In this document: positions 188 to 10,075 of the stretch, piece by piece | Layout: each line of letters begins with the position of its first letter | Position numbering within the stretch: position 1 is the first letter of the stretch | Source: Candidatus Thorarchaeota archaeon | GTDB lineage: Archaea > Asgardarchaeota > Thorarchaeia > Thorarchaeales > Thorarchaeaceae | Reading direction: 5' to 3' | Length of the DNA: 10,075 nucleotides | Assembly: GCA_029858305.1 (NCBI GenBank) | Contig: JAOUFI010000084.1 | Span: forward strand, 1 to 10,075 | Made by a program: the position numbers and the translations under genes | Notes under the pieces: generated by a model | Databases searched by the model: none | What the model saw: the letters and a program-made list of their open reading frames with translations, nothing else | Told to the model about the DNA's origin: nothing

Positions 188-1018
188 CTACGAATTGTGT
201 TCTAGAATGAATGCAAGTCTTTTACGTGGATAATCGATTACCAATTCCAACTGTCTTAAGATATCATATCCAATAATTCCATGTTCTATGAGCTTTCCCC
301 GCGGTGAAACAGAACCAAGATCTATCACTGCAATCTGCATTTTCTCTTGCTTGAATGATTCGAACGAAAACTGGTCAAGGAAAGCGAATTCTAACTTGAC
401 ATCACCACCAATACCACGAGCAATGCCATCGACAGGTTGTGTTTGGAGACTCAACAACTTGGCAAGGTCTGGAGTAATCACACTGCTTCCAGCTCCTGTA
501 TCAATGACAAAGTCAAATGGACCTTGATGATTGATATAAACAGGAACCTGAATCAGGTGAGTGTCCTCAATGTAGTCGAATTGTTTCCAAGAAAACTCTG
601 GTTCTTTCTCTGCCTTCGACGAATTTCCTTTACGAAGCTTGAAACGCCGTTTATGATAACTCAAAGAAAGGATGCAGTGTTGCAAAGTGCTATGACCAAG
701 AACTCCGTCACGTGCTCCACACCCTCCCAGCATCGAGTTCAGGTCCAGTACATACACTTCCTCCCCGTCGAATGTGAGAGAGCCCACAGCAAGACGATTT
801 ATACTCGTAAATCTGGTTGAAACACTTCCACCAACCCCTCTTGCATCATTCTTGGAATTCTGATAGGTTTGGAGGCCAAGACTCTCTGCGAGATTGCTTG
901 AGAGAGTGGTTCTGGATGCGCCAGTATCCAAATTAAATGTGAAGGGGCCCTGGTCATTAACATAGACCGGGACCTTAACAAGATTTGTGTTTCCTTCTAT
1001 TTGTATTTCTACTTCCAT
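188..1018 (-). CDS. Retropepsin-like (clan AA) aspartic protease with two tandem protease domains
   Basis: Two repeats, each with VPVY(V/I)NxQGPFxFxxDTGA, a flap-like ARG(V/I)GG and a G(V/I)(L/I)G motif (LDTGAS...GVLGHS; IDTGAG...GIIGYD). No signal peptide is visible. Confidence 0.9.
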   Translation of the reverse strand: MEVEIQIEGNTNLVKVPVYVNDQGPFTFNLDTGASRTTLSSNLAESLGLQTYQNSKNDARGVGGSVSTRFTSINRLAVGSLTFDGEEVYVLDLNSMLGGCGARDGVLGHSTLQHCILSLSYHKRRFKLRKGNSSKAEKEPEFSWKQFDYIEDTHLIQVPVYINHQGPFDFVIDTGAGSSVITPDLAKLLSLQTQPVDGIARGIGGDVKLEFAFLDQFSFESFKQEKMQIAVIDLGSVSPRGKLIEHGIIGYDILRQLELVIDYPRKRLAFILEHNS

Positions 1019-1050
1019 GATGACCAGACTCTGCTAATTCATAAAACAGC

Positions 1051-1884
1051 TCACTTTGGCTTTAGTGCAGCGATATAGGCGCTGTATGCGCCGTAGAGAC
1101 TATTACCCGCTTTCCCGGTGATCTCTACATCTACAAATCCAGCATTACGAATGTGAGCAAGATACTCTTCATCGAGAATAGCTCCTCCAATGCATCCTGT
1201 ATATGTAATAACCTCATCACGTACTTCTTTTGGCAATGGTTTTGAAAGGACTATATCAGACACCATAATCCTGCCGCCAGGACGCAACACTCTATATGCC
1301 TCTTGGAAGACCTTAGACTTGTTTGGAGCCAAGTTGATGACACAATTGCTGATTATCGCATCGACAGAGTCATCATCTACAGGCATATTCTCTATGTCTC
1401 CAAATCGGAAATCCACATTTGTGATTCCAAGTTCTTCAGCATTTTTCTTTGCTTTCTCAATCATTGCGGGAGTCATATCGACTCCAATCACCTTTCCGGT
1501 TGCTCCAACTTTCTTGCTGGCTACAAACATGTCAAGGCCAGCTCCACTACCAAGATCAAGAACGACCTCACCCTCTTTGAGGCTAGCAAGCGCAACTGGA
1601 TTTCCACACCCAGCAAAAGATTCGGTAGCACCCGTCGGCATACCCTCAATATCATAACCTAGAGCTTCCGCAATGTTTACCCTTGTGACTTTGACTTTCT
1701 GTTGAGAACCACAGCAACTCGAGGATGTCTGAGCTGATGCAGAATCACCGCAACTTGCATCGCTGCAACTTGGTGTCTGTTCATCTGCAGTCCAAGTCCC
1801 TTTTGCTACGCGAGAGTAGGCATTTCTCACTGCGTCCTTTATCTCATCAGGTTTCATTTCACTTACTTTTTTCAATTCCGTCAT
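1051..1884 (-). CDS. arsM: Arsenite S-adenosylmethionine methyltransferase
   Basis: Motifs SFAGCGNP, SAM-binding VLDLGSGAG(L)D, GVDMT, ISNCVINL and GCIGGA, plus the N-terminal 'IKDAVRNAYS' helix and a Cys/Ser-rich segment. Start moved from TTG 1899 to ATG 1884 because GGTGAT lies 3 nt upstream of it. Confidence 0.92.
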   Translation of the reverse strand: MTELKKVSEMKPDEIKDAVRNAYSRVAKGTWTADEQTPSCSDASCGDSASAQTSSSCCGSQQKVKVTRVNIAEALGYDIEGMPTGATESFAGCGNPVALASLKEGEVVLDLGSGAGLDMFVASKKVGATGKVIGVDMTPAMIEKAKKNAEELGITNVDFRFGDIENMPVDDDSVDAIISNCVINLAPNKSKVFQEAYRVLRPGGRIMVSDIVLSKPLPKEVRDEVITYTGCIGGAILDEEYLAHIRNAGFVDVEITGKAGNSLYGAYSAYIAALKPK

Positions 1885-1916
1885 ATTATCACCATTCAAT
1901 CCATTCTTTTAAAATC

Positions 1917-2087
1917 CTAAACAGATTCTATCATATCAGAGTTATATTTTCGCGATTGCGATCCGCAGCACCCAGATGTGATCCTTTTATCAGTTATATT
2001 ACATGAAGATACTTTGGAGTAGGCTTCCTTAATGGCTTTCTTTATTTCCTCAGATTCCATTTCGCTGACTTCTTTTCCTTCAGTCAT
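1917..2087 (-). CDS. 56-aa microprotein paralogous to the ArsM N-terminus (C-x10-CC)
   Basis: Manual translation MTEGKEVSEMESEEIKKAIKEAYSKVSSCNITDKRITSGCCGSQSRKYNSDMIESV*. 16 of the first 26 residues are identical to ArsM and CCGSQ is shared. GGTGAT SD 3 nt upstream. Could instead be a duplication remnant. Confidence 0.75.
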   Translation of the reverse strand: MTEGKEVSEMESEEIKKAIKEAYSKVSSCNITDKRITSGCCGSQSRKYNSDMIESV

Positions 2088-2227
2088 ATGATCACCACTT
2101 TCAATGGATTTTCTTCTGATAAATCATAGTCACAGCATAGTGATTGTGAATATGAGCTTCTAGTATTCATTCGATCCATGATTCCACATTTCAGAACTAT
2201 GTTTGTATGAATTCCATTTTCAGTCAT
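2084..2227 (-). CDS. 47-aa hypothetical microprotein (C-x16-CC)
   Basis: Manual translation MTENGIHTNIVLKCGIMDRMNTRSSYSQSLCCDYDLSEENPLKVVII*. AGGTGAT SD 3 nt upstream. Its TGA overlaps the next ATG (ATGA, 2084-2087). It is the first ORF after the divergent promoter. Confidence 0.6.
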   Translation of the reverse strand: MTENGIHTNIVLKCGIMDRMNTRSSYSQSLCCDYDLSEENPLKVVII

Positions 2228-2241
2228 TCAATCACCTTCTG

Positions 2242-2301
2242 TATTGGATGTCCAATATTGGGCATCCTATATATACATTTAAATGTATCGGACGTGCAAT
2301 A
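2242..2301. promoter_or_regulatory. Divergent promoter with three palindromic operator boxes (TATTGGA-NN-TCCAATA) and TATA elements
   Basis: Box 1 2242-2257 TATTGGATGTCCAATA (perfect arms). Box 2 2256-2271 TATTGGGCATCCTATA. Box 3 2286-2301 TATCGGACGTGCAATA. TATATATA at 2268-2275, and TTTAAA at 2278-2283 inside the perfect palindrome ATACATTTAAATGTAT (2273-2288). Confidence 0.8.
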
Positions 2302-2307
2302 CATCAT

Positions 2308-2679
2308 ATGGAAGACCCTTCGGAATCTGCTCCCTGTTGTCCACCTGAGTGTTGTGATATGAGGGGACTTCTTACCTTCCAGATTCTTTGGGAACTTGAT
2401 AAAGAAGAGATGAATGGGCAAGAGATAGCTGAGAAGATATCCAGGAGAAGGGGAACCAAACCAACTCCAGGAACGATCTATCCTGCGTTGAAAGAGCTGA
2501 AGAAGGAGAAGCTGATTAAAGGGCGAAAGGATGGTCGACAAATCGTCTACTCTTTGACGGAAGCAGGAAAGAAAGGATTAGTTGACGCCTCAAGATATTT
2601 TCTCCAAGCATTTGGAGACATTGCGGAAGATGTCAAGATCAAGGTTGTAGTCATTAGGCGTGACGATTGCAGCTGCTAA
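2308..2679 (+). CDS. PadR-family winged-helix transcriptional regulator with Cys-rich termini
   Basis: RGLLTFQILWEL...MNGQEI...PTPGTIYPALKELKKEKLI...YSLTEAGK is a PadR wHTH signature. N-terminal CCPPECC and C-terminal CSC. Start placed at ATG 2308, about 25 nt after TTTAAA (probably leaderless); the track's 2203 start would run through the promoter. Confidence 0.88.
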   Translation: MEDPSESAPCCPPECCDMRGLLTFQILWELDKEEMNGQEIAEKISRRRGTKPTPGTIYPALKELKKEKLIKGRKDGRQIVYSLTEAGKKGLVDASRYFLQAFGDIAEDVKIKVVVIRRDDCSC

Positions 2680-2848: not shown

Positions 2849-3460
2849 ATGCCACGTCCCGACCCAATAACAAAGATTGAGAACGTTGTTGCCTCAGTTA
2901 TTCTGAATCAGCGGTTAGATCTCGATGAGATTGCGGCTACAATGCCCAACGTTGAATTTGATCCCGAGCAATTCCCTGGTCTTGTATATCGGCTCAAGAC
3001 ACCAAAGACTGCAACTCTGATTTTCAACTCAGGGAAGATGGTATGCACTGGTGCCAAGTCAGAGAAGGAATCGAAACGAGCAGTACACAAGATCGTCAAG
3101 AATGTTAAAGAAGCTGGAATAGAAATCACAGGCAAACCGATTATCACCGTCCAAAATATTGTGGCTAGTGCGAATCTGGGTGCAGAACTGAACCTTGAAC
3201 TAGCCGCAATGAAACTTGAAAATACTCTCTATGAGCCCGAACAGTTCCCTGGTCTGATCTACAGAATGAGAGACCCCAAAGTAGTAATTCTCTTGTTTGG
3301 CTCTGGAAAACTTGTCATAACAGGTGCCAAGTTTGAACCTCAGATTCAAGAGGCGGCAGTGAAGGTAATGGACCGTCTTTTGGAGCTTGGTGTTATGAGA
3401 ATTCCTGAGGGCGAAGACTGGGGCCAAGTAAAAACAGATGATGAAAACGAGGACTGGTAA
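2849..3460 (+). CDS. tbp: TATA-box-binding protein
   Basis: Two TBP repeats: ENVVAS...PEQFPGLVYR...LIFNSGKMVCTGAKS and QNIVAS...YEPEQFPGLIYR...LLFGSGKLVITGAK. Acidic C-terminal tail as in archaeal TBPs. Confidence 0.98.
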   Translation: MPRPDPITKIENVVASVILNQRLDLDEIAATMPNVEFDPEQFPGLVYRLKTPKTATLIFNSGKMVCTGAKSEKESKRAVHKIVKNVKEAGIEITGKPIITVQNIVASANLGAELNLELAAMKLENTLYEPEQFPGLIYRMRDPKVVILLFGSGKLVITGAKFEPQIQEAAVKVMDRLLELGVMRIPEGEDWGQVKTDDENEDW

Positions 3461-3937: not shown

Positions 3938-3987
3938 CATTTCTAATAAGGCTAGCGATTGAATAAAGAGCAGTGAGAGGATTGCTG

Positions 3988-4170
3988 TTGGCAAAACGGA
4001 AAAATGAAGTGAAAATTGATGATATCATGGTTCGTGTACCAAGAGCTCTTCAGAAGAGATACGAAGGTCTCCTAAAGCGGGATTCGTGGAGATCCTTTCC
4101 TGCATTTGTGAGAGAAGCAGTGAGAGCATCTCTTGAAAAATATGAAACCCTTGAACGAGAGCGCGATTAA
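3988..4170 (+). CDS. Ribbon-helix-helix (CopG/Arc/MetJ-like) DNA-binding protein
   Basis: IMVRVPRALQKRYEGLLKRDSWRSFPAFVREAVRASLEKY shows the alternating beta strand, helix, S-x-x-x-F-V-R-E-A-V helix pattern. Start is either TTG 3988 (after GAGAGGA) or GTG 3973. Confidence 0.75.
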   Translation: MAKRKNEVKIDDIMVRVPRALQKRYEGLLKRDSWRSFPAFVREAVRASLEKYETLERERD

Positions 4171-4230: not shown

Positions 4231-5334
4231 TCATTTCTTCTTAGATTTCTTTGTATCTTTCTTTGATTCTTTTTTCTTGGTCGATTTCTTTGCTACATTA
4301 TTACTCTTGATCTTCGTATCAGACATCTTGATCTTCTTTGATGACATAACGATCTCTTGATTCTGTGCTTTTGCCCAGAGATCTACAGTCGCTGTTTGAT
4401 CTTCAATAATCTTGAGATTTGGTCTCTTTATTTCAGTAATCTGTTCCTTCTTAATGATTTTCGCGCCCAGGCGCTGTGCAAGGCGTAGAATTCTGACAGT
4501 AGATCTTGTCTGAAGAGCTTCATTAAACATGATAACAGGCAAGATATAGGCCATTACAAAGAATGGAAGACCAAGTGTCCAAAGAAGACCAAGTGTCCCC
4601 TGATAGATGACTAGTCCTGTTAGTTCGTTTGGTGGGATGGTTCCCTGGAGTATAGGTAGAATCAAGGGATTATAGAATTGGCTCAGAAACATTGTGATTG
4701 GGTAAGCTAGCAGAGCATATCCTCCAAGCATATTCGCAATCCATCGACCCACACCCTGAGTATCAGGAGTTTGTCGCAATTCCAAACTATCAGACTTAAG
4801 ATGGGTCACAACGCCCGCATCATTTAGTATCCAGGTGGGCATGAAAAGAATTAGTGCAATCGGAACAAAGAGTAGAGCACTCATTAATGAAAGCCCAGCC
4901 TCGTGCAAAGGCGCTATTTCCGCAATAGGAGCATAACCAAATGGAAATAATATGTTCTTAATGACATCACGAAACAGCTGGGATGATGCCACACTGAATA
5001 AAGCTGGAGCAGCCGCCCTTCGGATAATCTGGGTTCCATTAAAGTCCCTCCCTATGTTCATAATGTCCATTTCGTAGCGGGCGGACTTGACAATTCTGGT
5101 GATGACAAGAAGCACAACAGCCGCAGGGACTGCAAGAATAACATATTCAATCATGAAGATTGGGAATGCGATGATCATGATAGTAACAATATCATTTCCA
5201 AGAGTTTCGCTTAGCATTGTGGGAAAAAGAGATGTGGGTGGGACTGGCTCTGTTATTGTCATGATAAGTTGCACGGCAACAGCCATGCCTGCTACAAACA
5301 TGAAAGTCGGGAGTATGAACCTTGCTTTTCCCAT
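4231..5334 (-). CDS. Hypothetical polytopic membrane protein with Lys-rich C-terminal tail
   Basis: Long ORF with about 6 hydrophobic segments. The last 38 aa contain 17 Lys. ATG 5334 preferred over the track start at 5346. Confidence 0.8.
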   Translation of the reverse strand: MGKARFILPTFMFVAGMAVAVQLIMTITEPVPPTSLFPTMLSETLGNDIVTIMIIAFPIFMIEYVILAVPAAVVLLVITRIVKSARYEMDIMNIGRDFNGTQIIRRAAAPALFSVASSQLFRDVIKNILFPFGYAPIAEIAPLHEAGLSLMSALLFVPIALILFMPTWILNDAGVVTHLKSDSLELRQTPDTQGVGRWIANMLGGYALLAYPITMFLSQFYNPLILPILQGTIPPNELTGLVIYQGTLGLLWTLGLPFFVMAYILPVIMFNEALQTRSTVRILRLAQRLGAKIIKKEQITEIKRPNLKIIEDQTATVDLWAKAQNQEIVMSSKKIKMSDTKIKSNNVAKKSTKKKESKKDTKKSKKK

Positions 5335-5422
5335 GCTACAAACCAAAGTTCTGGCATTGCAATGGTATTGTTAAGGTTTACGAGAAACCAATACAACGTA
5401 TTTTTGGTCTGCTTTTGTTTGA

Positions 5423-6598
5423 CTAGAAGATGCTAAAAATCTGCCCGAGTGGCGGAATGCAAATTATGAGAATCACCATGGAGATTGCGAATAGTGCAAT
5501 ACGACCTTTTGTGACCTTTACAGTATCATTTAGCGGACCAGGATGACCACCCCCACCAGACATTAAAAGAATCAGAAGTGCCATCGTAATGTAACCTATC
5601 AGGACCATGGCTATTATTGCAGCCCAACCAATGCGCTTGTGCCAAGTTGAATCTATAAGTGCTCTTAGGGCATGACCTCCATCAAGCTGCGCTACTGGGA
5701 AGAGATTGAGTGCTGTTACAAGCATTCCCACCCAAGCAGCAAAGGCAACTGGATGTAGATAGATTGTTCCGCCTGCAGGTATGAAATCTATGAAGAGGTA
5801 CTCCATTAATATAAAGAGGTATGGAACTGGTAGTGAGCCAGACTGATTGGGGAAAGCTTGTTCAATCGCAGCAAGTTGCTCAGCTGTGACAGGAATCGAC
5901 ATGAAGAATCCAAAAATCAAGACGACCATTGTCACCATAAATCCAGCAAGTGGCCCAGCAAGACCTAAATCAAGTAGATCAGAACGGTTTTCTGTGGGGC
6001 TCTTCTGTGATATGAACGCTCCAAATGTCCCTCCAATTTGAGGAATACCTGGAATGAAGTATGGAAGTGATGATTCAATTCTCAGGCGCTGAGCAGTCTT
6101 GTAATGACCCATTTCGTGTGTAAAGATAATTCCCATGAGAGCTGCCATGAAAATAATAGTCGTAAATGCGATATCCCAGATACTGTATCCAGATGGATAG
6201 AAGAGAGAGAGGAAAATCGGACTTGTTGCTTGAAGAAAGCCCCCAATTGCAATCGTAGATAGGGTGACAATGAAAAGAATATAGTTGATTCGATTATTGC
6301 CCTTTCCAGCCCTTTGCTCGGGAACAAACCGAATAATATACTCGCCTTCCTGTTGATTACGCCATCGCACGACAGGCCAAACCTTTAGAGACTTGGTTAA
6401 TCTTGATATCTCTTTGAAAGTTGCATCTTGTTCGTCATTCGATGGAATAAAGCCATCAGCCCACTGAATGACGAATGTTGGCAGACCATGTTCAAGGACA
6501 CTCATCTTGATAATGAATTTCCGTGATAGAATCTCATTTAATTCCGCAAATGTCGGATAAGAAATCACAGTGCTTGTAGGATCTTCATCAATGGACAA
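5423..6598 (-). CDS. Site-2 protease family (M50) intramembrane zinc metalloprotease
   Basis: HEMGH (HExxH), GTFGAFI, AGPLAG and LNLFPVAQLDGGH (NxxPxxxLDG) motifs with multiple TM helices and a soluble N-terminal domain. TTG start with GGAG upstream. Confidence 0.93.
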   Translation of the reverse strand: MSIDEDPTSTVISYPTFAELNEILSRKFIIKMSVLEHGLPTFVIQWADGFIPSNDEQDATFKEISRLTKSLKVWPVVRWRNQQEGEYIIRFVPEQRAGKGNNRINYILFIVTLSTIAIGGFLQATSPIFLSLFYPSGYSIWDIAFTTIIFMAALMGIIFTHEMGHYKTAQRLRIESSLPYFIPGIPQIGGTFGAFISQKSPTENRSDLLDLGLAGPLAGFMVTMVVLIFGFFMSIPVTAEQLAAIEQAFPNQSGSLPVPYLFILMEYLFIDFIPAGGTIYLHPVAFAAWVGMLVTALNLFPVAQLDGGHALRALIDSTWHKRIGWAAIIAMVLIGYITMALLILLMSGGGGHPGPLNDTVKVTKGRIALFAISMVILIICIPPLGQIFSIF

Positions 6599-6769: not shown

Positions 6770-8725
6770 ATGGGATTCGTTGTGACTCGGAAAAGACTCA
6801 TTGTGTGTGAGATCTTAATTCTGGCAATGCTAGTTCTAATCATACCTCCCGCTACAGTCTTCTGCCATGATATAGCGAACCATCAAGACACTCATGATAG
6901 ATACATCAGTGCTAGTGACGTGATAATCATAAGTGATAATGATTGGATATCACAAGCATGGCCGGGTAACGGGACAATTGAATCACCGTATATAATCGAT
7001 GGGATTAACGAGGATTATGTAAAGATCTCTAATTCGACGAAATGGTTTGTCATTCAATTTTCAATGGTTCATGAACTAATACAATTTATCAATGTTACAA
7101 ATGGAAGGATTGAGTTCTCAATATTTCGAAGCTTGAGTGTTTATCAGTCAACGAATGTAACAATAGTTGGCAACACACAAGATGTCATTAGCCTGGACTT
7201 TGACTCATGCAATCACATTCTTATCGCAAACAATTCATTAAATGGAGTAGGTGTGCGCTATGATGGGGACAAAGGAATCACTACATCGTTCTCCTGTGAT
7301 GTTAGATTCCTAAACAACACGATAGGAGATTTTTACACTGGAATTGACATAGTCAATTCTTCGGACTGCTACATCCAAAAGAACTACATCACAATGTGTG
7401 GAATCTACACAGCAGTTACACCAACCCAACCACCAGTTCCTTTAAACGAGCGCGCATTCTCGCTCTCACAATCAGAATTTGCAACAATTGAAGGTGGAGG
7501 GATTAGGCTAGAGAATTGCACTAATTCGAAAATCACTAACAACACCATCGAAGAAAACGAAGGTAGTAACATTTTCGTGGGTACTAGCACTGACATTCTA
7601 ATCTACGATAATAGCATGACCAAGAATCGAAAGGGAATGATACTTCAAGAATGTACATCATTTAATATAACCTCAAATCTCATTGACCTTGGATTAACTC
7701 TATACTCATGTTTGTCTGGTGTTGTCACACACAACAGACTCCTATACAATGGACTTTTGCTTGAGGGAGCTTTAGAATGCCTAGTTCATTCGATTTCCAA
7801 TAATACTGTGGATGAGTCCCCAATAATCTACCTTGCTAATGTCAATTCTTACGCTATGGTATCTTCGACAGTAGCACAAGTGATTATTATCAATTGCACA
7901 CAGGTCATCCTTCAAGATGTAGCAACTGAAAACACCTTGGGTGTTCAGGTGATGTTTTCGGAGGCTTGTAGATTTCGATATGTTTCAAGTGGATATTTCC
8001 TCATTAGAGGTTGCTACGATGTGATGCTTGAAGATTCGCGTATTTATGGCTGGTCCGGATATGGTGTCGCAATTGATTCGTCTCTAACGGTGTTCATTCT
8101 AGAGAATTACATATCCTGTGGCATTCTAGTTCGGAATTACTCAAATAAGGTGTTTGTTAGAAATAATACACAGAGCGGAGCAAGAAGTAGTGCAATTAGA
8201 GTAGAGAGTGATTCTTCAGAGGTATTTATTGAACGCAATGATATAAGGATGTGCGGAAGGAACTCAGAATATTACTGGTACTATTCATACTATCCAGCTA
8301 TCCTTGTTATGGGCACAGACGGTTCTATAACAGAGAATACAGTTGTGGATAATTATGGGATTGGAATAGCTCTTCATGGTTCGAACATAACAGTTTGCTA
8401 CAATATCATCGCCAGGAATGGTCAAGGAAATGCTCTTGACCATGGTTCAGGTAACTTCTGGGATGATGGTGAAAGCCGTGGAAATACGTGGGGAGATTAT
8501 ATTGGATTTGGATATTATTACATTCCTGGAAGCGCGGGAAGTATCGATAGATATCCAAGTCTCAGCTCAGAGTTTATGGAACCCTATGTGATCATCACGT
8601 GGGCAGTCATTATTGGCACTCCATTGACATTGATTATCTTGGTTGGAATTCTTATCATCCTTCGACGGCGTAATAGAATACAAGCTAATAAACCGGTCCA
8701 AATCAAGAGAGTGGGATTGGGATGA
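6770..8725 (+). CDS. Secreted, C-terminally membrane-anchored right-handed parallel beta-helix (NosD/CASH-like) surface protein
   Basis: Signal-peptide-like N-terminus, WPGNGTIESPYII cap, many 'I.NN.I/T' beta-helix repeats, NFWDDG..GNTWGDY...IPGSAGSIDRYP C-cap, then a TM helix and RRRNR stop-transfer. Many N-x-S/T sequons. Confidence 0.85.
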   Translation: MGFVVTRKRLIVCEILILAMLVLIIPPATVFCHDIANHQDTHDRYISASDVIIISDNDWISQAWPGNGTIESPYIIDGINEDYVKISNSTKWFVIQFSMVHELIQFINVTNGRIEFSIFRSLSVYQSTNVTIVGNTQDVISLDFDSCNHILIANNSLNGVGVRYDGDKGITTSFSCDVRFLNNTIGDFYTGIDIVNSSDCYIQKNYITMCGIYTAVTPTQPPVPLNERAFSLSQSEFATIEGGGIRLENCTNSKITNNTIEENEGSNIFVGTSTDILIYDNSMTKNRKGMILQECTSFNITSNLIDLGLTLYSCLSGVVTHNRLLYNGLLLEGALECLVHSISNNTVDESPIIYLANVNSYAMVSSTVAQVIIINCTQVILQDVATENTLGVQVMFSEACRFRYVSSGYFLIRGCYDVMLEDSRIYGWSGYGVAIDSSLTVFILENYISCGILVRNYSNKVFVRNNTQSGARSSAIRVESDSSEVFIERNDIRMCGRNSEYYWYYSYYPAILVMGTDGSITENTVVDNYGIGIALHGSNITVCYNIIARNGQGNALDHGSGNFWDDGESRGNTWGDYIGFGYYYIPGSAGSIDRYPSLSSEFMEPYVIITWAVIIGTPLTLIILVGILIILRRRNRIQANKPVQIKRVGLG

Positions 8726-8795: not shown

Positions 8796-10075
8796 CTAGA
8801 GTTCAAACTTGCTTGCGAACAAGAATGAACTGTGGATCACCTCAAGAAGATTCATGGGCTTCGTCATGGAGCCGATAGTTTCACTTCGAATACCTTTTTT
8901 TCTCAATTGTATAGCTAGCCGGTCTCTGGATTGAGGTTTTGTAGCTAGAACGACTGTGTCTGCATTAATATGACTATACTTCCCATCCTGAAGGACTGTG
9001 ATGTATTTCGTATCTATTTCTTCAACACGTGAATTTGGATTAAGTTCAACGCCTTTTTCTTTCAAATGTTTAAGAACGACCCACCTTGAGGTTCTTCCTA
9101 GGTCAACTCCTATCATCTCATCGGAATCAAATACTTTGACCTTGTCTGCTTTTGATGCAAGAGAAAGAGCAGTATAGCATCCGAGAGCTCCACCTCCAAT
9201 AACCAGAACGGTTCCAAGATCGTCTAGATCTAGTGACAATGCATCATATGCAGTGGTCACATGAGAACCCTCAACACCATCGATTGGCGGAGCTCCTGCA
9301 ACAGTTCCCGTTGCGCAAATCACACAATCATAATTTCCAGCAGAAAGAATCTTAACAGTCGCTAGCACATTCAGTTTAATCTCGACATTTAGATTCGCAA
9401 GTTCTCGTTCCATATAGCTAACGAATGCTGCAAACTCACCCCGGCCAGGAACCTTTGCCGCCAAATTTAGGAGACCACCAAGTCGATTCTGTTCTTCATA
9501 TATTGTCACATGAAAACCACGAAGGGCTAGTACTCGTGAGGCCTCCATACCGGCAGGGCCACCACCAATAACTGCTATATTTCCCGTTCCTGCAGGATTA
9601 AGGAATCTCTCGCTCTCATAACCAGCAAGAGGATTTATTGCACATGTGACTGGTTCCATCATGAACACATGATCCAAGCAACCTTGATTGCATGCAATAC
9701 ATGGGCGAGTTAGGTTTTGTTTGTCCCCTCTTGCCTTTTCAGGAAGTGTTGGATCTGCGATGAAGCCTCGAGACATTCCAATGAGTTGGACCTTCCCTTT
9801 AGCAAGAATGTGTTCTGCAACAGATACACTGTTGATTCTGTTACAAGCAATAACCGGAACACTAACTACCTCAGCGACACCTTCAGCGAGATAGGAATAA
9901 TACCCACGAGGGACGTCCATAGTTATTTGGGGGACGCGGGTTTCATGCCAACCTCCAGTTACATTTAGACAATCAACACCTGCTCTGACTAGTTTTGGTG
10001 CCAAAATTTTGTTATCATCAAGTACGAGCCCGTCAGGGATAAAATCCTCTCCACTCATTCGATACAGAATTGGAA
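8796..10075 (-). CDS. fadH: NADH:flavin oxidoreductase / 2,4-dienoyl-CoA reductase (FadH-like), 5' end outside the window
   Basis: The frame is open to the window edge (PILYRMSGEDF). GWHETRVPQI, the 4Fe-4S motif CIACNQGC-x11-C (CAINP), FAD-binding IAVIGGGPAG and second Rossmann VLVIGGGALG are present. Substrate specificity is inferred. Confidence 0.85.
   Translation of the reverse strand, partial: PILYRMSGEDFIPDGLVLDDNKILAPKLVRAGVDCLNVTGGWHETRVPQITMDVPRGYYSYLAEGVAEVVSVPVIACNRINSVSVAEHILAKGKVQLIGMSRGFIADPTLPEKARGDKQNLTRPCIACNQGCLDHVFMMEPVTCAINPLAGYESERFLNPAGTGNIAVIGGGPAGMEASRVLALRGFHVTIYEEQNRLGGLLNLAAKVPGRGEFAAFVSYMERELANLNVEIKLNVLATVKILSAGNYDCVICATGTVAGAPPIDGVEGSHVTTAYDALSLDLDDLGTVLVIGGGALGCYTALSLASKADKVKVFDSDEMIGVDLGRTSRWVVLKHLKEKGVELNPNSRVEEIDTKYITVLQDGKYSHINADTVVLATKPQSRDRLAIQLRKKGIRSETIGSMTKPMNLLEVIHSSFLFASKFEL

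Follow-up and report, generated by a model that had tools for sequence, protein, structure and literature searches.

A PadR-type regulator with a cysteine-rich tail is encoded divergently from arsM in Thorarchaeota and other archaea and is a candidate arsenic-responsive repressor

The As(III)-responsive repressors of the ArsR/SmtB family include R773 ArsR, AfArsR and CgArsR, and SpArsR is selective for methylarsenite (MAs(III)). As(III) prefers coordination by three thiolates, and AfArsR and CgArsR use vicinal cysteine pairs. Vicinal cysteine pairs are also present in ArsD, an arsenic metallochaperone. Here we describe a locus of Candidatus Thorarchaeota archaeon in which the gene of a cysteine-rich PadR-family regulator is divergent from arsM, the gene of an As(III) S-adenosylmethionine methyltransferase, and from two very short open reading frames (ORFs), microORF-A and microORF-B. 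The window, i.e. the whole stretch of DNA that was analysed, comprised 10,075 nucleotides (nt) of contig JAOUFI010000084.1, and the region studied spans positions 188–2679. We are confident that the PadR gene, its predicted operator boxes and arsM form a real, conserved and probably regulatory unit, and we regard arsenic as the likely effector of the regulator.

Anaerobic archaea of sediments are now recognised to methylate arsenic widely. According to a cold-seep survey from 2023, whose main text nowhere uses the word ‘regulator’, Asgardarchaeota, Hydrothermarchaeota and Thermoproteota carry arsM (PMC10060404). A PadR-family regulator, ChrI, is encoded beside the chromate transporter gene chrA in Bacillus cereus SJ1 and is chromate-induced; the authors of that paper propose basic residues, not cysteines, for the recognition of chromate (PMC2936356). 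A PadR link predicted by STRING is given for Exiguobacterium in another paper (PMC6016940). Nothing relevant was found in PMC12652892 and PMC13732558. Our full-text literature search, outside which lay most subscription journals and all supplements, returned no description of a PadR-arsM system, of how these arsM-bearing archaea sense arsenic, or of a free-standing paralogue of the ArsM N-terminal tail encoded upstream of arsM.

The region contained the following features (aa, amino acids; bp, base pairs).

188–1018, minus strand: aspartic protease, retropepsin-like, 276 aa; Pfam Asp_protease_2 (PF13650) in two stretches, 121 bits
1051–1884, minus strand: ArsM, As(III) S-adenosylmethionine methyltransferase, 277 aa; NCBIfam NF008823, 308.8 bits (cut-off 263)
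1917–2087, minus strand: microORF-B, 56 aa, with Cys29, Cys40 and Cys41
2084–2227, minus strand: microORF-A, 47 aa, with Cys14, Cys31 and Cys32; first ORF of the arsM-side transcript
2228–2307, no strand: divergent control region of 80 bp from microORF-A to the PadR gene, with boxes and a TATA element
2308–2679, plus strand: PadR-family regulator, 123 aa; Pfam PF03551, 47.6 bits

Two gene starts differ from those of the listed ORFs. ArsM starts at ATG 1884 (MTELKK...), as indicated by its homologues and by a ribosome-binding motif, GGTGAT; the listed ORF (1051–1899) opens at TTG 1899. For PadR, the start is ATG 2308 and not TTG 2203 of the listed ORF (2203–2679), because the 123-aa homologues begin there and the operators and the TATA element fall within the longer ORF. 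MicroORF-A, microORF-B and ArsM all begin with MTE and have GGTGAT 3 nt before the ATG (2231–2236, 2091–2096 and 1888–1893, respectively). This hexamer can pair with the conserved 3' end of 16S rRNA. The stop codon of microORF-A overlaps the start codon of microORF-B (ATGA, 2084–2087), and 32 nt separate arsM from the protease gene, which follows it on the same strand. A vicinal CC pair is present in PadR, microORF-A, microORF-B and ArsM (C57–C58, within SSSCCGS). A Pfam scan of the 13 ORFs of the window gave no ArsR, ArsB/Acr3, ArsC or ArsD domain. An initial annotation of this DNA had described a PadR protein with CCPPECC and a terminal CSC divergent from the microORFs, arsM and the protease gene, vicinal CC pairs in four of the products, and a window devoid of arsR, arsB/acr3, arsC and arsD. 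All of these features were present once the starts were corrected.

The partner enzyme scored above the cut-off of the NCBIfam model ‘arsenite methyltransferase’ and also matched Methyltransf_31 (137.6 bits). Its closest relatives in the PDB were the arsenite methyltransferases 5EVJ (1.3e-38) and 4FR0/4KW7. It is a short form that lacks the C-terminal domain of the algal enzymes. The motifs FAGCGNP, ISNCVINL and YTGCIGGA have aligned counterparts in 5EVJ and 4KW7/4FR0, and SSSCCGS is present near the N-terminus. The As(III)-binding cysteines of CmArsM are Cys72, Cys174 and Cys224 together with an N-terminal cysteine. By its profile and motif matches, the window ArsM is a member of the As(III) S-adenosylmethionine methyltransferases. 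Among 71 full-length partner ArsMs from the loci described below, SNCV, C-x-GGA and an N-terminal CC pair were kept in 71/71, and the GCG cysteine, read by eye, in 70/71. The sole ArsM without it (L043; L numbers are our labels for loci) reads ...ESFTEYANP at this site and has kept the other motifs. The N-terminal tail carries two or more CC pairs in 36 of the 71 enzymes. In several Bathyarchaeia and Hydrothermarchaeota loci it reads CC-x-PE-CC, which is the same motif type as in the PadR tail.

A scan of genome contigs with the PadR protein (one genome per species) matched 146 stretches, 88 of which encode relatives, and 80 loci were kept. Their records are titled Thorarchaeota (44), Hermodarchaeota (7), ‘Promethearchaeota’ (7), Bathyarchaeota/-ia (10), Hydrothermarchaeota (1), Methanocellales/-aceae (2) and ‘uncultured archaeon’ (9). 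A divergent arsM was located directly upstream of the PadR gene in 75/80 loci (tblastn with the window proteins). The initial annotation had been prepared to give up its proposal if this linkage were not conserved; the neighbourhood survey found it kept throughout these 75 loci. L077 is not assessable for arsM, since only 254 nt of contig precede its PadR gene. When all ORFs of at least 70 aa in the 80 loci were clustered, ArsM and PadR were the only gene clusters common to different lineages, each of them present as full ORFs in 71 loci; the protease came next, with 24 loci. The flanks vary by lineage and include flavin reductase, DHODH-like, GH3, CbiQ, DinB and nitroreductase genes, among others. 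Pairwise distances of PadR and ArsM were correlated (Mantel r 0.78; 0/999 permutations as high), which indicates joint inheritance and is not independent proof of an interaction.

In the 80-bp gap between microORF-A and the PadR gene, a 16-bp palindrome, TATYGG-N4-CCRATA, occurs three times, on both sides of a palindromic TATA element.

2242–2257, no strand: predicted operator box 1, TATTGGATGTCCAATA; 0 mismatches, a perfect 7-2-7 palindrome on the arsM side
2256–2271, no strand: predicted operator box 2, TATTGGGCATCCTATA; 1 mismatch, sharing 2 nt with box 1
2273–2288, no strand: perfect 16-nt palindrome ATACATTTAAATGTAT, 100% complementary; candidate bidirectional TATA element
2286–2301, no strand: predicted operator box 3, TATCGGACGTGCAATA; 1 mismatch, between the TATA element and the PadR ATG

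Across the window as a whole, six matches to the box pattern occurred at ≤2 mismatches, against 1.14 expected, and 1/200 shuffles reached six. At ≤1 mismatch there were exactly three matches, all in the 80-bp gap. The 80 loci and the window were then scanned at ≤1 mismatch, taking 130 nt upstream of the PadR starts, some of which are approximate. This gave 176 boxes in 11,016 nt upstream of PadR genes and 27 in the remaining 741,223 nt, a density ratio of ~440. The initial annotation had described the gap as packed with repeated palindromes, and its boxes recur upstream of the PadR genes of other loci. Seven of the 27 boxes elsewhere lie at −8 to −5 of an approximate PadR start and therefore belong to the same PadR promoter, 15 lie in a second three-box promoter in five loci, and five are isolated. 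Within the 130 nt, the number of boxes is two in 34 sequences, three in 32, one in 12 and zero in three; in two of the sequences with none, a box is located just beyond the interval.

The arrangement of the boxes is conserved as well. The proximal box starts 22–23 nt before the PadR ATG, right after ACATTTAAATG, and is the most constant site across loci; ACATTTAAATG is kept immediately 5' of it in most of them. Counterparts of box 1 and box 2 occur at about −66/−67 and −52/−53 from the PadR ATG, respectively, in most close loci. Boxes 1 and 2 lie between TTTAAAT on the other strand and the ribosome-binding site of the first arsM-side ORF, and in loci without microORFs the distal box is ~10 nt from the arsM ATG. 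In archaeal promoters, transcription starts ~25 nt after the TATA box. With this spacing, the PadR mRNA would be leaderless and the box between TATA and the start would occupy a classic position for repression. From the same promoter geometry, ATACATTTAAATGTAT, which reads TTTAAAT on both strands, is proposed as a bidirectional TATA element serving both divergent promoters. The palindromes are well supported as a conserved predicted operator, with box 3 placed where autorepression would be expected.

The second promoter (box, TATA ACATTTAAATA, box, box) is located just after the PadR gene in five loci, at the following coordinates.

L050, 6419–6615: second promoter
L058, 2399–2579: second promoter
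L060, 5707–5887: second promoter
L063, 6410–6590: second promoter
L065, 2686–2865: second promoter

It heads an ORF of 33–38 aa with two cysteines (CxxC, CC or C-x5-C) and a GGAGGT-type ribosome-binding site in 5/5 loci. This ORF is unrelated to microORF-A and microORF-B. The second promoter repeats a theme of the first, namely a Cys-bearing microORF heading a transcript with PadR boxes.

The regulator belongs to the PadR family and to its small single-domain subtype, as the PadR model PF03551 matched residues 26–91 above its cut-off of 27 bits. The ArsR/SmtB model NF033788 gave 29.6 bits, below its cut-off of 55, and Pfam HTH_5 was not reported for the protein. Three parts were distinguished: a flexible N-terminal tail with CCPPECC (residues 10–16), a winged-helix core with a C-terminal, predicted dimerisation helix (residues 19–109), and a tail ending in DCSC. 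The AlphaFold2 (AF2) model has helices at residues 19–32, 37–48 and 54–66, strands at 70–75 and 78–83 and a long helix at 85–109, with a predicted local distance difference test score (pLDDT) >90 in the core. Residues 1–18 and 110–123, i.e. the cysteine tails, have pLDDT <50 and are disordered in the model. The best Foldseek matches were TA0346, RosR, Rv3488 and LmrR, all of them small PadR proteins (probability 1.00, template modelling (TM) scores of 0.6–0.8). Sequence matches to solved PadR relatives (E 1.9e-08 to 1e-05) start at query residue 15–22, and none of the solved relatives matched (TA0346, Rv3488, RosR, LmrR) covers the N-terminal cysteine tail.

When modelled as a homodimer, PadR scored 0.57, with 0.00 as the best of three controls. 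This favours self-association but is no proof of it; PadR dimers have already been solved, so this pass may reflect likeness to them. The score mark was reached by 20/30 proteins solved as pairs of one chain and by 1/23 solved as single chains. Runs agreed in at least 55% of contacts, with a partner pLDDT of at least 74. In the modelled interface, the C-terminal helix (95–113) contacts residues 19–28, just past the cysteine motif, and 47–49 of the other copy. The model would therefore let the cysteine tail of one subunit emerge beside the C-terminal end of the other.

A protein search with PadR returned 797 proteins at E ≤0.001 among 804 candidates, and all named close homologues are from Candidatus Thorarchaeota or Promethearchaeota assemblies. 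C10, C11, C15 and C16 were invariant in 30/30 aligned homologues (down to 59% identity), and C121 was conserved in at least 90%. Of the PadRs of the 80 loci, 75 have CC-x(3-7)-CC as their N-terminal motif and three have C-x(3-5)-CC. A bare CC occurs only in two Methanocellales PadRs, both of them without arsM. The paired CC motif, first noted in the window protein by the initial annotation, is a hallmark of the family. With clustering at 50%, the family proved compact: eight clusters reached 1e-30, and 177 reached 1e-10. Of the 150 best representatives of these clusters, six have CC..CC, three C..CC and nine CC only; many of these entries are N-terminally truncated. Distant small PadR-like relatives often keep a single cysteine before DMRG (xCDMRGxLSF; proteins P0148–P0296). 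A cysteine before helix 1 therefore looks ancestral, and the version with three or four cysteines looks like an arsM-linked elaboration.

For repression, the effector, the role of the tails and any function of the micropeptides, we infer the following scheme. Its core would be a two-gene unit, in which a small homodimeric PadR repressor is transcribed divergently from arsM. The promoters would stand back to back around the palindromic TATA element, with 16-bp boxes between TATA and each transcription start. Bound PadR would block its own leaderless gene and the arsM-side transcript (microORF-A, microORF-B, arsM and perhaps the protease gene). The disordered N-terminal CC-x3-CC tail before helix 1 would be the sensor, and the C-terminal C-x-C may assist it in Thorarchaeota. 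Two or three tail thiolates could bind As(III) or its product methylarsenite. Once bound, the arsenical would stiffen the tail at the interface of the dimer and weaken DNA binding, upon which arsM would be induced and arsenic methylated. The microORFs, first in the transcript, would be translationally coupled to arsM, with microORF-B as a free-standing duplicate of the Cys-bearing ArsM tail and microORF-A as a fast-evolving leader ORF with one invariant cysteine. We favour, and consider likely, a reading in which PadR represses arsM as well as its own gene and is released once its cysteine tail binds As(III) or methylarsenite. As(III) and MAs(III) are preferred as effectors mainly because the ArsM tail shares the motif type of PadR and because the partnership of the two genes is constant. 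The initial annotation had gone further and proposed a self-contained sensing, binding and methylation unit. This exceeds the data, as both the effector and any arsenic binding by the peptides are steps that we infer.

MicroORF-B aligned with residues 1–63 of ArsM (23/63 identical, E 1e-09, BLASTP) and had only sub-threshold N-terminal matches to ArsM models (16.2 bits). Judged by sequence, it is a free-standing paralogue of the N-terminal helix and CCG motif of ArsM. Relatives occur upstream of arsM in seven loci plus the window, with the CC pair invariant (8/8) and the helix VSEMxxxEIKxAVRxxYSxVA kept in most of them. Nineteen database proteins matched microORF-B, and all the named ones are ‘hypothetical protein’ entries of Thorarchaeota. 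In addition to the window, 22 loci have a relative of microORF-A in the same position, and eight database proteins matched it. The initial annotation had expected gene callers to miss both ORFs. This was half right: relatives of microORF-B are annotated in several NCBI assemblies of Thorarchaeota, and those of microORF-A are more rarely recorded. Pfam has no family for either of them, and microORF-A was also without an NCBIfam match. Neither showed a sequence or profile relation to ArsD-type or other described Cys-rich metal chaperone families.

The microORF-A frame contains no internal stop in 23 sequences, against 65 and 114 stops in the other sense frames and 45–66 in the antisense frames. 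Conserved, too, in the 23 sequences are GGTGAT-N3-ATG at its start and the ATGA that it shares with the next ORF. Cys31 is the sole invariant cysteine (22/22), and a CC pair is present in 2/22; the three cysteines with a CC pair that the initial annotation had stressed are peculiar to the window copy. In the same genome pairs, the ratio of non-synonymous to synonymous substitution rates (dN/dS) was ~0.3–1.5 for microORF-A, 0.03–0.11 for ArsM and 0.03–0.09 for PadR. The synonymous rate (dS) of microORF-A was often below that of the adjacent arsM (window and 18 loci; 0.19 vs 1.14 for the window against L005). This hints at a constraint on the nucleotide sequence itself, in an estimate that is noisy and based on few sites. 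A search of the window for structured RNAs or riboswitches in the leader gave no Rfam family at gathering score, as far as Rfam models reach, and this candidate was rejected. We also observed an alternative-frame ORF (MVIEWLK...) that overlaps microORF-A in L003 (5788–5931), L011 (5724–5867), L005, L014 and L028. It begins at an ATG inside the ribosome-binding region and is open for 23–47 codons in some loci.

The initial annotation had counted both microORFs among the parts of the module. They are accessory, since in ~50/75 PadR-arsM pairs the gap is 32–127 bp, or the genes apparently overlap, leaving no room for them; even the close relatives L001, L020 and L021 are without them. It is quite possible, if not our preference, that the microORFs have no peptide function and are by-products of duplication and deletion of the arsM 5' end, kept open only through translational coupling to arsM. 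All three ORFs share the MTE start and the GGTGAT-N3-ATG unit, and this repetition of the ribosome-binding site and start (direct repeats D1 and D2) suggests that units were gained and lost by recombination; related genomes carry zero, one or two of them. MicroORF-B was clearly copied from the arsM 5' end, and the microORF-A peptide is weakly constrained, its conserved C-terminal K-x-V-V-I being encoded by the ribosome-binding site of the next gene. What this explanation does not account for is the open frame of microORF-A in 23/23 sequences, the invariance of its Cys31 and of the CC pair of microORF-B, and the unrelated two-Cys microORF that heads the second PadR-box transcript in 5/5 loci. 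Nor does microORF-A resemble arsM past the first codons, as it shares with ArsM and microORF-B only the ribosome-binding site and the MTE start. An origin of microORF-A as a diverged ArsM N-terminus or microORF-B copy was rejected, as BLASTP gave no alignment and hhalign gave probabilities of 0.6% and 2.5%. In DNA alignments with the arsM 5' end that skipped the first four codons, microORF-A did no better than shuffles in 7/9 loci (p ~0.05 and 0.003 in the other two).

We conclude that microORF-A and microORF-B are real ORFs of uncertain peptide function. It seems doubtful that the Cys microproteins (microORF-A, microORF-B and the 33–38 aa ORF of the Hermodarchaeota-type loci) form a functional layer that captures As(III) or MAs(III) and hands it to ArsM or the PadR tail, or that couples translation to the metalloid load.

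Several observations weigh against arsenic as the effector of PadR. Four loci (L052, L064, L079 and L080) carry the PadR gene without arsM and with unrelated neighbours by Pfam. The C-terminal C-x-C is present in 44/80 PadRs and is therefore not essential to the family. Pfam scans of the window and of 15 and 28 neighbour proteins gave no arsB/acr3, arsC, arsA or arsD beside the pair; with no efflux pump or reductase gene there, a role in resistance is not self-evident. The solved relatives respond to drugs, cadmium and oxidants, RosR being linked to oxidative stress and Rv3488 to cadmium. The second promoter makes the regulon wider than arsM and lends some weight to a broader thiol-stress reading, as its microORF is followed by a nitroreductase gene in four loci and by a gene for a 208-aa small methyltransferase in L050. 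In the same five loci (L050, L058, L060, L063 and L065), a Flavin_Reduct-domain protein (~193 aa) follows arsM on the same strand. Such a context of nitroreductase, methyltransferase and flavin reductase is reminiscent of a regulon for general thiol, redox or electrophile stress. Genes of the DinB family are often found nearby, too, and the single cysteine before DMRG in distant relatives fits redox sensing as well as metalloid binding.

These points could be explained together if PadR were a sensor of thiol redox state, electrophiles or soft metals (Cd, Hg, Cu), with the ArsM-type enzyme acting in a broader detoxification regulon, possibly on Sb, Se, Te or thiols. We regard this as unlikely. 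The constant partner in 75/80 loci is an ArsM above the arsenite methyltransferase cut-off with its As-binding cysteines kept. The arsM-linked PadRs have three or four cysteines including vicinal pairs, whereas the two compared PadRs without arsM have only two, and the substrate-side tail of ArsM uses the same motif type. An arsenic-responsive PadR repressor remains our preferred reading.

The protease has two clan-AA domains (DTGAS and DTGAG), and RVP also matched its second half (Pfam). Its gene directly follows arsM in ~23 loci, 22 of which are in one clade that also shares an alpha/beta-hydrolase as the next gene and a TATA-binding protein (TBP). In the close Thorarchaeota clade, the arsM-protease spacing is 17–32 nt. 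The protease cluster covers 24/80 loci; L047 has an extra partial copy at a contig end, 2.2 kb away and seen by tblastn only. Outside the clade the gene adjoins arsM once (L049), it is present without arsM in L052, and it is absent from other lineages. The protease was rejected as a core part of the module because it follows the synteny of this clade and occurs without arsM in L052. It may be co-transcribed with arsM in the window. Nothing ties it to arsenic, and it is not part of the PadR-arsM unit; the initial annotation, which had included it in an arsenic module, had picked up the gene order of one clade. We consider improbable a full unit in which As(III) is sensed by PadR, bound or chaperoned by both micropeptides and methylated by ArsM, with the protease serving the same function. 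In its favour, the minus-strand genes of the window run in one direction with short or overlapping junctions, the order microA-microB-arsM-protease recurs in L012, both microORFs have GGTGAT and conserved open frames, and microORF-B keeps its CC pair. Against it stand the ~50 pairs without room for microORFs and the three close relatives that lack them, the single invariant cysteine, dN/dS of 0.3–1.5 and lack of a detectable Cys-chaperone relation of microORF-A, and the distribution of the protease.

Other neighbours were recorded as follows. The gene for TBP is located directly downstream of the PadR gene (2849–3460; Pfam TBP, 206.8 bits), and this adjacency is kept in close Thorarchaeota loci (18 full ORFs in the TBP cluster). 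Seven loci have one extra gene in between, encoding a DUF4256 protein in L011, L012 and L017 and other proteins in L005, L014, L016 and L045. Further downstream, the window contains a 65-aa ORF (3973–4170) and a gene for a 371-aa multi-pass membrane protein with a lysine-rich C-terminus (4231–5346), both without a Pfam match, followed by genes for an M50 site-2-type peptidase (5423–6598), a 651-aa NosD/beta-helix repeat protein with a hydrophobic stretch at its C-terminus (6770–8725) and a truncated FMN/FAD oxidoreductase (8796–10073; Oxidored_FMN and Pyr_redox_2). In L026, L027, L030, L032, L035–L039, L041 and L043, a second, shorter methyltransferase (~230 aa) is encoded downstream of PadR on its strand. 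The L030 copy is of the UbiE/COQ5 type (163 bits), and there is no separate PadR box before these 11 genes.

If PadR is the sensor, an As(III) thiolate switch would have evolved on a second protein scaffold in addition to that of ArsR. The 16-bp operator and the 123-aa protein could then serve as parts of an orthogonal arsenic biosensor, and a CC-x3-CC PadR with its box could be used as a genomic marker for truly arsenic-regulated arsM in uncultured archaea. The free-standing copy of the ArsM cysteine tail would open a test of the role of this poorly understood tail. If the Cys microproteins did take part as well, Asgard archaea and Bathyarchaeia would have arsenic sensing and trafficking independent of ArsR and ArsD, with a PadR tail that mimics the substrate-capturing tail of ArsM.

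Compared with described systems, the locus is most readily set beside the ArsR/SmtB repressors. Like them, the window regulator would be a small homodimeric winged-helix repressor that regulates itself and an ars gene at a palindromic operator, which is predicted here. It also has a cluster of cysteines with vicinal pairs in a flexible tail, which is how As(III) sites have typically, and repeatedly, arisen. In contrast to them, it belongs to the PadR family and its cysteine motif is N-terminal, before helix 1; its predicted target is arsM alone, without an efflux pump, under an archaeal TATA promoter. ChrI resembles it as a PadR-type regulator whose gene is coupled to one for resistance to a toxic oxyanion. 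However, ChrI is bacterial, its partner is a transporter and not a methyltransferase, and it is absent from the sequence matches of the window PadR, so the two are not closely related. TA0346 (3ELK), Rv3488 (5ZHC), RosR (6EZ1/6QFD) and LmrR (3F8F) share its fold and length class, a winged helix with a single C-terminal helix, which the predicted PadR dimer uses, and differ in having no CC-x3-CC N-terminal tail.

The enzyme is a member of the ArsM/AS3MT group (CmArsM, 4FR0/4FS8; CrArsM, 5EVJ), of which microORF-B copies the N-terminal helix and CC motif. With ArsD, the microORFs share only a concept, a small protein with cysteine pairs that is encoded in an ars operon and passes As(III) on to a partner. 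There is no sequence relation, the microORFs encode 47 and 56 aa, and the proposed partner is ArsM and not the ArsA ATPase. PadR regulators beside metal or oxyanion genes have precedents in ChrI and, through its link to cadmium, Rv3488, and the present locus would combine an ArsR-like logic with a PadR scaffold.

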